Part shown: one piece after another, positions 5,901-60,012 of the stretch | Layout of the letters: every line of letters starts with the position of its first letter | Position numbering within the stretch: the first letter of the stretch is position 1 | Virus record (IMG/VR): IMGVR_UViG_3300005337_000003 | Coordinates: 32,001-96,000 of that record | Strand: one strand, 5' to 3' | DNA from: a virus | DNA length: 64,000 bases | Made by a program: the position numbers and the translations under genes | The notes under the pieces: model-generated | Databases searched by the model: none | What the model saw: the letters and a program-made list of their open reading frames with translations, nothing else | What the model was told of the DNA's origin: nothing

Positions 5901-6291
5901 AGTAATTCATCTCGTCGGCACTATCGTAATCCAGGCCCGTGAAATCTCCTGTAAGGGCTGCGCCGTAGGAACGGATCGGGGCTTTAAAGCCTGTAGCAGC
6001 CAGCTTACCTGCTGTCTTTATTGCCCGCCACATATCTCCCAGGCCTGAACTATTGTTGTTATACAACGATTCGTTATCTACCCATGGGTTGAACCCCAGT
6101 TTAGAAAAAGACGGATGAGAATAATAACGCTCAAAGTTCTTATTTTGGTCTGTGGTGCTACGGGGATCATAGCTGAAAGAGGCTGCACTTACATACGGAC
6201 TGAATACCTGCTTAGATACCCGGTCAGGAATAGAAGAGACAGCAGCTTCCTGCTGCGCTATCAATTCATCGAGTTTTGGGTCCCGTGGCAT
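2935..6291 (-). CDS. Large internal virion/ejection (cargo) protein, 1118 aa
   Basis: Long helical Ala/Gly-rich ORF with EARMEG and SEGLQESLQD motifs typical of podophage ejection proteins; lies next to the giant protein as in crAss-like genomes. Confidence 0.75.
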   Translation of the reverse strand: MPRDPKLDELIAQQEAAVSSIPDRVSKQVFSPYVSAASFSYDPRSTTDQNKNFERYYSHPSFSKLGFNPWVDNESLYNNNSSGLGDMWRAIKTAGKLAATGFKAPIRSYGAALTGDFTGLDYDSADEMNYYNAVGSSTRGGVSGFASNLMSNSGYTVGMIGELVLENYLTSGIGSAFKGTQGALQVGKFTKDLGKYEAALGTLKEINNYSAAEKLWNAAKSITPLANTFEAAKDIYQASKSGSVNAAVASYKTAGALYQDIQAANFTVSEARMEGAAAQRDAEERMLAKFREEHGGRYPDDQEYATLKENAKDAGTSNMIANIPVIFLTNKLTFDPLLKSFAQPTEYTLRNGARFMRQGDKLVEATFMNRTRAAFKPKNWGIGAVKYFRGNLSEGLQESLQDITAGTAVDYYANLYGSKTRSGLDHGRGEYTNDSMWDALAKNTVDQLSGKGFETFASGFFMGGLVSPVSAGIEKIAGYRKTKNDYTQKTLATLNEYYKDPLRFFSSRDINYTTSAEAVKGQYEALDENDKKKWLDNEFENLASNTKLALDTGSYDLFLDKLRDIRSMTPEAIKETFGRDGQEILSKVDSLISRAETVKQKYEEWNLRLQNPFSPTMYHKDTPEYTREAIGYSAWEQAKSRAIFDSAKVEDNATRIKNIASGLLAQAGTNKIPSNYFNALTSPIQLQKEIGLLKDEIEVLEYNNNREELKAKKNTLKHLEDFNTTLTGLYLHQDLEGLSPEAKKALSLDKQKRTDQNKLFKSYSNYLKSLNPSSSVSNVELRKSFDELLDLHELGIENVITTETVNTLADPQGFLNYYERLNSAFTDLYNSKGDIIKKGIELAQKSTEDNSILQTLYDRGFVLSPQSVDKLINDKAVPERFFDINAKQAIDARDPRYQKFKDIVDNYLNVTKPEEEVVTEEQVEQPEVAQEQGKTKEDVQAEDVLERIPGVKNLDELDALKAEFETMFRLFDRRTRKRMNLTANKILKGLEARRQEFHNVISMSNLPVGTVVQLTNKEHDKGMVSQNTGKKLTIDLLNKNLKITVEEKDLKDTVLGIQSEAAQDTQPTDKEKELATQSSEQVTNFINSSRQVLEKTMEEALADPEKFEKEFEETLGCV

Positions 6292-39108: not shown

Positions 39109-39919
39109 GGTTATTTTCTTTAATGTAGCTAATTCCTATTTCTACTTCTCTTTTCATGTAAGGCACATGGACATCTTCTATGTCCTTGATAATTGGCTCT
39201 CCGTTTTCGTCATATCTTACCAATGGGTAACCGTATTTATCCAAGCCCTCTAATTCAAAGGTAACATATTCTATTGTTAATTCCTCTACTGTGATCTGGG
39301 GATTGTGCCTGGAGATCATGTAGGCGCCTAAACTCAGCTGTAAGGCATAATCGGTAAGGTGAGTATCGTCCAAGTGCCTTAGCGGAGGATTCAGTTTTTT
39401 GGTCTCACCCTTCCAGTTCACATAAGCTGGCTCTTTTAAATTCTTGTTGGTTTTATAGTCCCGCATGTACAGCTTGGAATCTTTTATAATGGGCTTATCG
39501 AATTGTCCGCAAGTACCGGCGGAGGCAATATATGTCAAATGCTCTGGGTAGACACCATCCTGTAATTTCTGATTAGGGGCGATCTTTACACCATTATCCC
39601 AAATAGGAGAAATCACAGGCAATTCTACACCCTTAAATGTGTACGTTGGGGAAGATAGCAGTAGCCTTTCCTGTTTGTCGTGATACCAGTTGCCTAGTTT
39701 TATGGATCTTGCATTCTCTTCCTTCCATATACGTTGTATTTCTTCAGGTGGAATTCCGTACCATTTGGATTTTTTAGATTTAGTAGAACTTAGCGATGTT
39801 TCTACCGGGTCAAATTTATCTTTGAATAGGCTACAGAATTTAGAAGCTGATAACCATTGAATGGTGGAGGCTGTATCGATATTCTCGTAATAATGCTTGT
39901 CTGGATAAAACCTTATCAT
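39083..39919 (-). CDS. PD-(D/E)xK exonuclease (Cas4/RecB-like), 278 aa
   Basis: GTCGQFD...MRDYKTNK...YALQLSLGAY motifs. Confidence 0.85.
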   Translation of the reverse strand: MIRFYPDKHYYENIDTASTIQWLSASKFCSLFKDKFDPVETSLSSTKSKKSKWYGIPPEEIQRIWKEENARSIKLGNWYHDKQERLLLSSPTYTFKGVELPVISPIWDNGVKIAPNQKLQDGVYPEHLTYIASAGTCGQFDKPIIKDSKLYMRDYKTNKNLKEPAYVNWKGETKKLNPPLRHLDDTHLTDYALQLSLGAYMISRHNPQITVEELTIEYVTFELEGLDKYGYPLVRYDENGEPIIKDIEDVHVPYMKREVEIGISYIKENNHVRLSRAI

Positions 39920-40290
39920 GTGTCGCGGTAATTGGCTTTTTGTTTTAGTTTTTGTTCCTGCTCATAATCCATAATTTCATCCCATAAGAAGTGACGTCCT
40001 TCTTCTTTCTTAAGAGAGCAGCTGCATGATAAGCAATGCGTCATGTATTTTATATTACAACCGCAGAAGCCACACGCAGGCTTTCCTTTTAACTCTACAA
40101 TATCCGCTGATCCGAATTTGTCGTAAAACCCGCAAACGTTACCCTCGCATATCTTGCGGCGCTCTGCTGCTATTCTTTTTATGTGCTGTTTGGGGAAAGT
40201 GCTATTCCACCACCCCTCCAGTATTTTCCACTTGCTTCTCCAGATTAGTCTGTAATTTATCGCCATACATTTTAATATTTCTATCTTCAA
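39916..40290 (-). CDS. Zinc-binding protein, up to 124 aa (start uncertain)
   Basis: CEGNVC...CGFCGC...CLSCSC. Confidence 0.65.
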   Translation of the reverse strand: MKIEILKCMAINYRLIWRSKWKILEGWWNSTFPKQHIKRIAAERRKICEGNVCGFYDKFGSADIVELKGKPACGFCGCNIKYMTHCLSCSCSLKKEEGRHFLWDEIMDYEQEQKLKQKANYRDT

Positions 40291-40615
40291 AATATTTCTT
40301 TACTTCGGGTTCAAACCCCTTCATAATCTCCGCCCGTCTTTCCAATTCTAATCGTATCATCAGACTTCGTTCGTCAGTAAATTGACTGAATTTAGCTATC
40401 AGCTTATTGATTACTTTTTGCCTGGTGAAAAATTTAATAGGCCTAAGTCTGATTATGCCAAGCCCGTGCACTCTAAACTGTATTGCCTGATAATTCACCA
40501 TGTCAGCCTTCAATTTACCATAATAATACTCAATTACATCCTGGATGTATTCCTCAGGCAAGTTCAGCTTGTCGGCTGTTTTTCTGAACAGCTCTTTCGG
40601 GTCCGTTGGATTCAA
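40202..40615 (-). CDS. Second IHF/HU-like protein, 137 aa
   Basis: TADKLNLPEEYIQDVIEYYY...FRVHGLGIIRLRP fits the HU fold pattern. Confidence 0.65.
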   Translation of the reverse strand: MNPTDPKELFRKTADKLNLPEEYIQDVIEYYYGKLKADMVNYQAIQFRVHGLGIIRLRPIKFFTRQKVINKLIAKFSQFTDERSLMIRLELERRAEIMKGFEPEVKKYFEDRNIKMYGDKLQTNLEKQVENTGGVVE

Positions 40616-41036
40616 TGTGCATCAATGTTATGTTAACTACTATATTCCCCTTGGTCAAAATGTTGGCTCCTGGATCCAGGTATATAATCTTCTTACCTAT
40701 TCCCTCCTTCTTAAGTATGGGAACTCTTTGGAGTTTATTGAGGGCAGTCTGTACCGATTGGGGAGAACTCAGTATACCCCGCTTAGCTGCCTCCTCACAG
40801 AAAAATGTAACACGGCACTCCCCAAGCTCTCCTAGTAGGGATAAAAGCATCAACTCCGTATAATTCAGTATGATATTTTTTATAAAGCAATATTGCATAA
40901 TCTGATAACGTATGATTTCAGATCTGCTGCATTTGACACGCTTATTGACGGAGGTGGCGCCTCCCACCACCTGGCTATGCTGTTCCACTCTTAGTTTCCT
41001 CCTTTCCTTCCTTCGTGCTTTGTTCCTTCTGGGCAT
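40554..41036 (-). CDS. Winged-helix DNA-binding protein (start uncertain, probably a downstream GTG)
   Basis: LNYTELMLLSLL...SPQSVQTALNKLQRVPILKKEG resembles a wHTH. Confidence 0.5.
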   Translation of the reverse strand: MPRRNKARRKERRKLRVEQHSQVVGGATSVNKRVKCSRSEIIRYQIMQYCFIKNIILNYTELMLLSLLGELGECRVTFFCEEAAKRGILSSPQSVQTALNKLQRVPILKKEGIGKKIIYLDPGANILTKGNIVVNITLMHIESNGPERAVQKNSRQAELA

Positions 41037-58614: not shown

Positions 58615-58815
58615 TCGCCTTCATCCTGGGGCTGGGAAGAGTTATAATAAGGCCGGCGTCGAAAGACCACGGCTTTTATTATAGCCCCTCCCACAGCTCC
58701 CGCATCAAGGCCAAGCGACTGGCATTGCGTTAACCGCGCCCCCTTATCCCTCCCTATTCTGCCTATTCTCTCTCATTCATTATCCTAATCAATTAACAAT
58801 TAAAAACAAAAGAAC

Positions 58816-59160
58816 ATGAGCACATTAAAACTCACATCAGATGGCTCCTACTACAAGCGTAGCTCAGGAGTAGACGGCCTGACCACTGCCAAGCAGGTAT
58901 TCCGTTACAACGTTACCGGGGACGAAAAAGACATCGTTGAATACATTGCCGAGCGCGTGAAGGGCGGCGCCAAGGAAACATCGATAAAGACAGAGACCGG
59001 CGTTAAGTACTATACCGATCGCTTTGTTCCAAACGGCACCAGCCTGGACAAAACCCAGGATGGCCGGTTCTTTCCCAACACTGCCAAATGGGATCAGATC
59101 CTGAGCCTGCAGAAACAGGGCCACTCCTACGAGGCTGCCGTGGCAATGGTGTCGGCATAA
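58816..59160 (+). CDS. Hypothetical early protein, 114 aa
   Basis: Strong A-rich leader; high-expression-like codon usage. Confidence 0.7.
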   Translation: MSTLKLTSDGSYYKRSSGVDGLTTAKQVFRYNVTGDEKDIVEYIAERVKGGAKETSIKTETGVKYYTDRFVPNGTSLDKTQDGRFFPNTAKWDQILSLQKQGHSYEAAVAMVSA

Positions 59161-59184: not shown

Positions 59185-59312
59185 TAGGCCGGGAGACTTG
59201 TGCTCCCGGCATTTCACATCAAAAAAGCTCAGTTGTGTGGAGCAAAGTGGCCTGTCCTTTGTGTGGAGGCTGGCCGGCCCCTGGGAGTTGTGTCCCGGGG
59301 GCTTTTCTATTT
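59185..59312 (+). ncRNA. Candidate sRNA with four UUGUG-loop hairpins, the last being a terminator
   Basis: Loops ACUUGUG (59196-202), AGUUGUGUG (59231-39), UUUGUGU (59258-64), GUUGUG (59287-92); G-U pairs and the U tail favour the plus strand. Confidence 0.65.
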
Positions 59313-59316
59313 CACT

Positions 59317-59374
59317 GGGGAGTAGGGGTCAACCGGATCGTATACCGGGCGCTGTTCGAGTCAGCGACTCTCCA
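59317..59374 (+). ncRNA. Anticodon-less tRNA-like element (58 nt)
   Basis: Acceptor GGGGAGU/ACUCUCC-A, perfect T arm CGCUG-UUCGAGU-CAGCG, and only 26 nt between them (a single arm). Confidence 0.65.
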
Positions 59375-59463
59375 CTAAACGAGGCGACAAGCCCACAACA
59401 TAACCACGGGACGGATCAGCTCCAGATAAGCAGCTGGTGGACACGTCTCCTTAACAATAAAAT

Positions 59464-59550
59464 GGAGAGCTGGATGCATGTTGGGCTGTCCGCATGGTGG
59501 CTTTGGGTTGCCACTCTTTTCTCCGGGTTCGATTCCCGGGCTCTCCACCA
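59464..59550 (+). tRNA. Atypical tRNA (87 nt) with an 8-nt anticodon loop (UUUGGGUU; Pro-like UGG plus one nt) and encoded CCA
   Basis: Acceptor GGAGAGC/GCUCUCC-A-CCA; T arm CCGGG-UUCGAUU-CCCGG; anticodon stem GUGGC/GCCAC; D stem AUGC/GCAU with a 14-nt loop. Isotype uncertain. Confidence 0.7.
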
Positions 59551-59793
59551 GCAACACATTGCGCCTCGACAAGCACCGACGGGTGTTTCGTTGGTCAGAC
59601 GTGGTAGCCTTCAATAAGCTACTGATGTCCGTAAAATGGGAAAAAGCACCACATGGATACAGGGGTCCCAACGATAGAGGATGTAATTTACCAGCACCGA
59701 ACGCTAATACCAAAACGGGCGTCGAGTACTATCGGAAGATAGTCGCTGGCTTATTTTGCCAATAACTTTTATTAATTTTAAAAATTGACAGAC

Positions 59794-60012
59794 ATGGAAC
59801 CCAGAGAAATAACACTTACCGGCACGATCCATATCGCACACTTCAGGTTCTATGATGGCCTGCATTATGTAAAGGACAAGCCTTTGAAACAAACCACCCA
59901 GTGGGAGGAACTGGACGGCGGCACAGGATATATGGTGGCCTGTGGCGATGTGATGGTGCGGGTGCCTGAAGACTATTGCCCGCACATCAAAAGAAGAATA
60001 ATAACCATTTAA
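59794..60012 (+). CDS. Hypothetical early protein, ~72 aa
   Basis: ATG 59794 in frame with the track's TTG start. Confidence 0.55.
   Translation: MEPREITLTGTIHIAHFRFYDGLHYVKDKPLKQTTQWEELDGGTGYMVACGDVMVRVPEDYCPHIKRRIITI

Follow-up and report, generated by a model that had tools for sequence, protein, structure and literature searches.

SufB2 is a tRNA-Pro that carries a G37a insertion in its anticodon loop, 3' of the anticodon; it is charged with proline, in cells shifts the reading frame about 8% of the times that CCC-C is passed, and mostly stays in frame at CCC-A in vitro (PMC7803779). In the present study, we analyzed a tRNA-like gene of a phage that resembles SufB2 and sufA6 (Salmonella, E. 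coli) in having an 8-nt anticodon loop, an extra base after G37, an apparent Pro-type NGG anticodon, and the G36-G37 motif of TrmD (PMC7803779). However, SufB2 is an otherwise normal tRNA-Pro, with C1-G72 and normal D and variable loops, and came from a laboratory selection for suppression of a frameshift mutation, whereas the phage gene combines an aberrant body with a non-Pro acceptor, has an extra U instead of G, and has no frameshift target that we could find in its genome.

Phage tRNAs are also known as countermeasures. Three reports describe phage tRNAs that counter tRNA-targeting defenses (T5/mycobacteriophage tRNAs, tRNAs acting against PARIS, and tRNA-Tyr acting against retron effectors); their anticodon loops depart from the host type, as does that of the gene described here, and they supply or replace the host tRNA under attack (PMC10264068, PMC11464382, PMC11555353). 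In contrast to these tRNAs, the present gene fails the tRNA covariance model and appears to fit no identity set.

The tRNA-like domain of tmRNA, mascRNA, YrlA, and viral 3' tRNA-like structures form a further group of counterparts, in which a canonical acceptor/T-arm module is joined to a non-canonical remainder. The same division is found in the phage gene, and processing by tRNA enzymes, as in these RNAs, is probable. It has A3-U70 instead of G3.U70, and it has neither an mRNA-like domain nor a Ro-binding stem.

The phage and the architecture of its tRNA-like gene

The source record is a complete 129,798-bp IMG/VR virus with direct terminal repeats, and the window (the whole 64,000-nt stretch of DNA that was analyzed) covers its bases 32001-96000. 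The large terminase, portal, and major capsid genes were recognized by PHROG family matches, and TerL, portal, and capsid are all intact. The terminase is approximately 26% identical to terminases of crAss-like, Azobacteroides, and Flavobacterium phages, a level of identity that would place the virus as a distant relative of crAss-like phages. We therefore refer to it as a lytic, distantly crAss-like phage of about 130 kb; its host is probably a member of Bacteroidota. No Phage_integrase domain was detected in the phage, while the control was positive in 14 of 14 genomes. RtcB and a CCA-adding enzyme were absent from the phage genome; T4 Rnl1 was also without a match, in a search whose control matched nowhere.

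Genes run on the minus strand at 1-56 kb and on the plus strand from approximately 58.8 kb on. The tRNA-like gene is located in this strand-switch zone, where the GC content is 0.51, compared with 0.39-0.48 elsewhere; the gene itself reaches 0.60, and the genome averages approximately 0.44. ARAGORN with default settings made a single tRNA call in the whole 129.8-kb genome, which is this gene, and none in 7.8 Mb of sequence simulated from the genome with a first-order Markov model. A canonical tRNA was found nowhere in the phage (Rfam on the window, ARAGORN on the genome). The locus is a real, single-copy, orphan tRNA-shaped gene in an RNA-rich strand-switch region. Its parts and the surrounding elements are listed in Table 1.

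Table 1. Features of the tRNA-like gene and of its surroundings (positions in the window)
Feature	Position	Strand	Basis or description
tRNA-like gene, whole, 87 nt	59464..59550	+	ARAGORN default call, cloverleaf fold
Acceptor stem, 5' strand GGAGAGC	59464..59470	+	Pairs with 59540-59546; 7 Watson-Crick pairs; G1-C72, A3-U70
D region	59471..59496	+	Folding; two alternative forms
Anticodon arm	59497..59514	+	Stem 59497-59501/59510-59514, 5 Watson-Crick pairs; loop 59502-59509 = TTTGGGTT
Variable region, 8 unpaired nt, TCTTTTCT	59515..59522	+	Sequence, fold
T arm	59523..59539	+	5-bp stem, G53-C61, 7-nt loop TTCGATT
Discriminator A73 and encoded CCA	59547..59550	+	Sequence
Mini tRNA-like element, 61 nt	59317..59377	+	GGGGAG acceptor, G3.U70, A73, no encoded CCA
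Terminator-like GC hairpin and U tract	59276..59312	+	Ends about 5 nt before the mini element
Weak third tRNA-like fold	59551..59630	+	Abuts the CCA end; two acceptor mismatches; ARAGORN relaxed threshold (-ps70) only
Motif TTAACAATAAAA	59451..59462	+	Directly upstream of the 5' end of the tRNA-like gene; second copy at 58793-58804 (+)
Leader segment GCTGGTGGA	59433..59441	+	Perfectly complementary to 59544-59552 (3' end, CCA, two trailer bases)

All 21 of the 21 stem pairs are Watson-Crick, a state reached by just 13% of the 379 distinct ARAGORN-called tRNAs from the fetched phage loci that served as our comparison set. The canonical features of an elongator tRNA, namely a 7-bp acceptor stem, a 5-bp T stem, the T-loop consensus, a discriminator, and CCA, are present, and the hallmarks U8, D-loop GG, U33, G37, G53-C61, a canonical T loop, A73, and CCA are kept. 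Within the window, GGTTCRANTCC is matched exactly in the T loop of this gene only. A sequence-only reading of the locus had proposed a perfect acceptor stem, T arm, and CCA, all of which we could confirm from the sequence, together with a 14-nt D loop. The latter holds for one of two forms of the D region, with a 4-bp stem (59474-59477/59492-59495) and a 14-nt loop containing GGG, but not for the minimum free energy (MFE) form (-35.7). There, a longer hairpin of 6 bp with a bulge closes a 7-nt loop, and 4-5 nt of linker come after it. As modeled, the D region is off-spec in either form.

The length anomalies of the gene all fall in loops (D, anticodon, and variable). Canonical sizes are 7 nt for the anticodon loop, about 7-11 nt for the D loop, and 4-5 nt or a stem for the variable region, against 8, 14, and 8 unpaired nt here. 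In the comparison set, D loops measured 4-11 nt, so the 14-nt loop lies outside their range, and an 8-nt anticodon loop and 8 unpaired variable positions were found in only 3 and 1 of the 379 tRNAs, respectively.

The anticodon stem (GTGGC/GCCAC) had been proposed to close around 8 nt, and this was borne out by folding: each pair of the 8-nt register has a probability of 0.98-0.99 in the thermodynamic ensemble, so that this register takes up about 99% of it. Each pair of the 7-nt register has a probability of 0.007-0.009, and the 7-nt cloverleaf (-25.6) is 7-8 kcal/mol worse than the 8-nt cloverleaf (-32.6 to -33.7). The accompanying claim that 7-nt registers break the stem needs to be narrowed: such registers are strongly disfavored (<0.01), but one does exist and is used by ARAGORN, whose label tRNA-Gln(UUG) rests on a shifted register with the loop CTTTGGG, the anticodon TTG, and three consecutive G.U pairs. 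In the 8-nt register, the loop is that of a tRNA-Pro(UGG), U32-U33-U34-G35-G36-G37, with one extra U between G37 and U38, and its first six bases are identical to those of tRNA-Pro(UGG) loops of related phages (TTTGGGA or TTTGGAA). The structural analogy to frameshift-suppressor tRNA-Pro drawn by the sequence-only reading is sound, as the extra base sits at the position of G37a in SufB2.

The gene lies among other structured elements. The mini tRNA-like element, 87 bases upstream, consists of its acceptor, a short central hairpin, and a T arm, ends in ACTCTCCACTA, and agrees with the tRNA-like gene at 17 of 22 positions across the T loop and the 3' strand of the acceptor. A look-alike with the same 11-nt 3' end occurs 5 nt downstream of an interrupted tRNA in a distant phage of 152 kb (L029:11309-11369). 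The third fold downstream received no support from Rfam. The motif TTAACAAT(T/A)AAA has exactly two copies in the window, both on the plus strand and within 660 nt of each other, while looser matches occur at chance level. One copy lies 12 nt before the ATG of the ORF 58816-59160 and the other 2 nt before the 5' end of the tRNA-like gene; judged by sequence, the repeat may be a shared promoter or leader element. In the MFE fold of 59376-59580, nine pairs between the leader segment and the 3' end replace the acceptor stem in the precursor. This predicted pairing is suggestive of a competitor of the acceptor stem, with a rough chance estimate of approximately 0.06. Folds of the wider cassette and of an outer helix were not significantly more stable than those of shuffled sequences (z = -1.2 to -1.9).

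Identity of the gene and search for relatives

At gathering thresholds, Rfam gave no match in the window, and the tRNA family RF00005 returned no row for the gene either at gathering (29 bits) or at E <= 10. In a permissive Rfam search of 106 bases, the best row from the tRNA clan was a truncated tmRNA alignment at 12.6 bits (10.9 in another run), and the score under the tRNA model must therefore lie below 12.6 bits. Among the Rfam tRNA-like families, tmRNA thus scored 12.6 bits (threshold, 47) and mascRNA 13.7 bits (threshold, 42.5), and YrlA gave no match. Odd long or interrupted tRNAs of related phages, including one with a 23-nt insertion in the anticodon arm, scored 39-70 bits in Rfam, indicating that the gene is not merely a tRNA in phage style. 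Judged by these models, it would not count as a tRNA by the usual standard.

The acceptor appears to suit neither reading of the anticodon (Pro-UGG or Gln-UUG). Bacterial ProRS recognizes C1-G72 together with A73 in the acceptor; A73 of the gene fits these determinants, and G1-C72 in place of C1-G72 does not. In related phages, the tRNA-Pro(UGG) genes whose anticodon stem is sound (three in L029 and two in L039) have C or T at position 1 and never G1-C72, so the observation that G1-C72 is unlike tRNA-Pro, made in the sequence-only reading, holds against these genes; 92-nt Pro(UGG) calls in L018 and L019 begin with GG and have poor anticodon stems. Glutamine identity is not fitting either, because tRNA-Gln of the related phage L014 has U1-A72 where this gene has G1-C72, and alanine identity is excluded by A3-U70, which leaves no G3.U70. 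By established identity rules, the gene presumably matches the identity set of no synthetase.

The acceptor GGAGAGC...GCTCTCC-A-CCA also occurs in phage class II tRNA-Ser(GCU) and tRNA-Tyr genes. Compared with class II tRNA-Ser(GCU) and tRNA-Tyr(GUA) of phages, the gene matches exactly in acceptor, discriminator, and CCA, is almost the same in the T arm, and has a comparable length (85-90 nt), but it lacks their long variable arm as well as an anticodon for Ser or Tyr. Since the likeness is limited to parts that the search pattern required, it does not demonstrate descent. A Ser/Tyr covariance model (R3) likewise scored 39 bits solely through the acceptor and T arm that the search pattern had preset, which makes this score circular, and a Pro-tRNA covariance model (R2) scored 24 bits with the anticodon arm skipped; in both models, the alignment is confined to the acceptor, the T arm, and a portion of the D region. 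An interior likeness to a 67-nt element in L137 was matched by 131 of 2000 shuffles and is not significant.

No near relative of the phage was found: the best homologues of the 276-aa protein encoded next to the gene do not exceed 44-45% identity. Single-protein locus searches with three neighboring proteins returned no loci, and a 140-aa neighboring protein had no homologue. Through an alignment of homologues of the 276-aa marker, we retrieved 36 related IMG/VR loci. Neither nhmmer nor blastn detected a homologue of the RNA in these loci, and a covariance model built from the single sequence (R1) gave generic tRNA matches only in the 36 loci and the 36 whole records. An exact 28-mer of the 3' half and a pattern combining the anticodon loop with the T loop were both absent from IMG/VR; in metagenome contigs, the latter matched one unrelated GC-rich pseudo-tRNA (L038, 15 bits). 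We also considered that the gene might be an attP copy of the 3' half of a host tRNA and rejected this, as the 22-nt segment from the T loop to the acceptor matched none of 185,579 bacterial species genomes and the phage has no Phage_integrase domain.

Decoding at CCC-N sites in the phage genome

The sequence-only reading had proposed a quadruplet or frameshift-promoting tRNA, a proposal for which we found no support in the genome. Codons were counted in a simple ORF-based set of 173 genes, with 94% of the sequence coding. CCC-A occurs in frame at 130 sites, is the commonest CCC-N context, and is not avoided. An efficient shifter at CCC-A would be costly to a genome with 130 such sites. We defined +1 junctions as those at which the +1 frame runs for at least 60 codons beyond the stop. 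CCC-N was present in the overlap of 5 of 28 +1 junctions compared with 6 of 54 -1 controls, which is no enrichment, and the virion genes are intact.

Two junctions were inspected as candidates. The pair 40554-41036/40202-40615 might have been one gene split by a +1 shift at CCC-G, and this was refuted by the homologues of the downstream ORF: in a library of 1.8 billion proteins, 35 other proteins match the ORF 40202-40615; these are stand-alone for the most part, with 77-186 residues, and their alignments usually begin within the first few residues. This pair is part of a series of three ORFs in a row on the minus strand (39916-41036), where the overlap from one to the next is 60-90 nt long and in the +1 frame. 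Because homologues show the middle ORF to be independent, these are long gene overlaps and not frameshifts. At the junction 9331-6266/6291-2935, which has CCC-A at 6280, we found an ordinary overlapping ATG start.

The downstream ORF 59795-60012 begins with ATG GAA CCC A, where a +1 shift would run into a stop two codons on. CCC-A falls in codons 2-8 of 6 genes compared with 3.9 expected, and the start of this ORF is thus unremarkable. We found no gene or site in this genome that depends on a +1 shift at CCC-N, and a programmed system of four-base or +1 decoding finds no support in these data. An 8-nt loop in a genome without target sites is no evidence for recoding, and the result is a useful negative on natural four-base decoding.

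Interpretation and look-alikes in other phage contigs

We favor, tentatively and at a probability of roughly 0.4, the reading that the gene encodes a tRNA mimic, matured as tRNAs are but acting off the ribosome rather than as a regular decoder. Perfect stems, anomalies confined to loops, the hallmarks that are kept, and the high GC content argue for selection on the fold and against neutral decay, and it is the combination of flawless stems with three enlarged loops that favors a mimic. The half read by tRNA enzymes (the coaxial helix of acceptor and T arm, the T loop, A73, and CCA) is flawless, whereas the decoding half is off-spec in three loops. Most likely, the RNA would be transcribed together with the neighboring structured RNAs, and a cut by RNase P and 3' trimming would yield an 87-nt CCA-ended RNA. 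As an off-ribosome look-alike of tRNA-Pro(UGG), this RNA could serve as a decoy or competitor that engages a host factor recognizing the anticodon loop. Such a factor could be a nuclease that acts on this loop, or else TrmD (which reads G36-G37) or ProRS (which reads G35-G36). It might also, or instead, serve as a processing punctuation mark for the RNA cassette, and it would have no part in a programmed four-base or +1 decoding system. A decoy for anticodon nucleases or tRNA-sensing defenses and a processing signal for the neighboring RNAs were the other two proposals of the sequence-only reading, and the mimic favored here belongs among them.

In favor of the mimic, the gene has its own upstream motif, an exact repeat, and sits among other structured elements that are free of ORFs. 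The low score under the tRNA model, the acceptor that fits neither Pro, Gln, nor Ala, the lack of frameshift targets in the genome, the many RNAs of similar build in phage contigs, and the known use of phage tRNAs against tRNA-targeting defenses point the same way. Against it, the gene has no homologue and hence no conservation or covariation to back a function, the phage has no RtcB or CCA-adding gene that would point to a tRNA-centered conflict, and the surrounding cassette folds no more stably than shuffled sequences.

Alternatively, the gene could be a relic, the last survivor of a tRNA cluster that is being lost, deformed by recombination or indels and functionless now. We regard this as somewhat unlikely, but a decayed cluster is a serious rival because distant relatives keep genuine tRNA clusters beside the homologue of the 276-aa marker (12 tRNAs in L014, and 5 each in L029 and L037). 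A relic would also be in keeping with a phage without any canonical tRNA, with neighboring tRNA-like pieces that are still more reduced, with three independent anomalies in a chimera of Ser/Tyr-type acceptor and Pro-type loop, and with the absence of a conserved homologue anywhere searched. However, none of the 21 stem pairs is disrupted or a wobble, which is better than in 87% of working phage tRNAs, and if neutral decay had caused three indels in loops, the 42 stem bases should have been struck as well. The high GC content is maintained in an AT-richer genome, and phage genomes rapidly delete useless DNA. At the other extreme, it is highly improbable that the locus is an artefact, such as a homopolymer indel in the T3-G3-T2 run, or a misread protein-coding stretch. 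The loop does consist of three homopolymer runs, but a single indel leaves the D and variable loops unexplained. An ATG at 59462 opens a 51-codon hydrophobic ORF within an open frame of 139 codons (59198-59617), and the leader before 59462 resembles that of the ORF at 58816; however, the ORF has no homologue and is not called as a gene in the protein collection, and a perfect cloverleaf with T loop and CCA would be unexpected within a coding frame.

The remaining explanations place the RNA on the ribosome. As an ordinary triplet decoder, it would be a tRNA-Gln(UUG) in the 7-nt register or a tRNA-Pro(UGG) that supplements CAA or CCA decoding. The default ARAGORN label, the use of CAA for 40% of Gln codons and of CCA for 27% of Pro codons in the phage, and U33 with a purine at position 37 in both registers are compatible with such a role, which we nevertheless consider decidedly unlikely: the 7-nt register accounts for <1% of the ensemble and needs three successive G.U pairs, G1-C72 with A73 is unfit for Gln (U1-A72 in L014) or Pro (C1-G72), the tRNA-model score of <12.6 bits compares with a threshold of 29 bits, and the D loop is outside the range of the 379 tRNAs. 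It is improbable, too, that the RNA is charged by ProRS through G35-G36 and A73, reads CCN as a triplet, and slips by +1 on CCC-A as SufB2 does at its own sites, thereby switching or truncating phage or host proteins. Its loop does equal that of tRNA-Pro(UGG) plus one base after G37, at the site of the SufB2 insertion; CCC-A in the 0 frame presents CCA, cognate to UGG, in the +1 frame; and the ORF just downstream offers such a site at its start, where slippage would end translation two codons later. Yet the 130 in-frame CCC-A sites are not avoided, CCC-N is not enriched at +1 junctions, 6 genes have CCC-A among their first 8 codons where 3.9 would be expected, the virion genes are intact, and the sole candidate split gene was refuted. 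The acceptor has C72 instead of the G72 of related tRNA-Pro genes, the oversized D and variable loops make use on the ribosome doubtful, and SufB2 itself stays largely in frame at CCC-A in vitro (PMC7803779). Most specific, and very improbable in our estimate, is a natural SufB2-like RNA on a non-Pro scaffold that is charged, slips by +1 at CCC-A, and throttles the ORF starting with ATG GAA CCC A or degrades the translation fidelity of the host as a takeover weapon.

If the RNA is made and matured, the tRNA mimic favored here would be a clean example of a poorly charted class, in which the enzyme-facing half of a tRNA is kept and the decoding half rebuilt. RNAs of this type could work as decoys against immunity that targets tRNAs, or provide handles for RNA processing. 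Pattern scans returned many RNAs in phage contigs with a canonical acceptor and T arm and an aberrant anticodon domain; judged by sequence, they suggest that a class of this kind is common in uncultured phages. tRNA finders based on covariance models may miss such RNAs, as the Rfam tRNA model missed the present gene.

Several of the scanned contigs contained unusual RNAs of their own. Distinct IMG/VR elements in L042, L043, L045/L046, L047, and L048 end in GTTCGARTC-NNNN-ACTCTCCACTA, and 6 of 6 distinct hits are non-canonical tRNA-like RNAs. Their acceptor is GGGGAGT or GGAGAGT, their anticodon domain is aberrant, and ARAGORN recognized none of the six as a normal tRNA. In L047, on the minus strand, a 5' acceptor strand and a D arm (GGAGAGT TA GCTCAATCGGTAGAGC) follow approximately 95 nt downstream of the ACTCTCCACTA end; this order of a 3' half and then a 5' half may reflect a permutation, or the second part may just belong to the next gene.

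A tRNA in L029 (11219-11303; 53 bits in Rfam) has a 23-nt insertion in the anticodon arm that includes a small hairpin, and ARAGORN assigned it an 8-nt loop with the anticodon AAAA. In a related phage, a segment matching the Y RNA-like YrlA family at 40.9 bits, below the threshold of 69 bits (L018:13035-13130), lies 150 nt upstream of a 92-nt tRNA-Pro(UGG)-like gene. Four contigs (L129, L131, L135, and L139) carry 95-nt tRNA-shaped genes that end in GCTCTCCACCA and are not called by ARAGORN; with a 6-bp D stem, a 4-nt D loop, the loop CTTGAAA (anticodon TGA), and a long variable arm, their sequences appear to resemble tRNA-Sec or allo-tRNA. CCA-ended tRNA-like RNAs of 67-76 nt with G3.U70 and no usable anticodon loop occur in L110, L119, and L137, the one in L110 having a 9-bp stem with a 4-nt loop, and a 92-nt element in L123 holds two T-arm-like hairpins within one acceptor frame.
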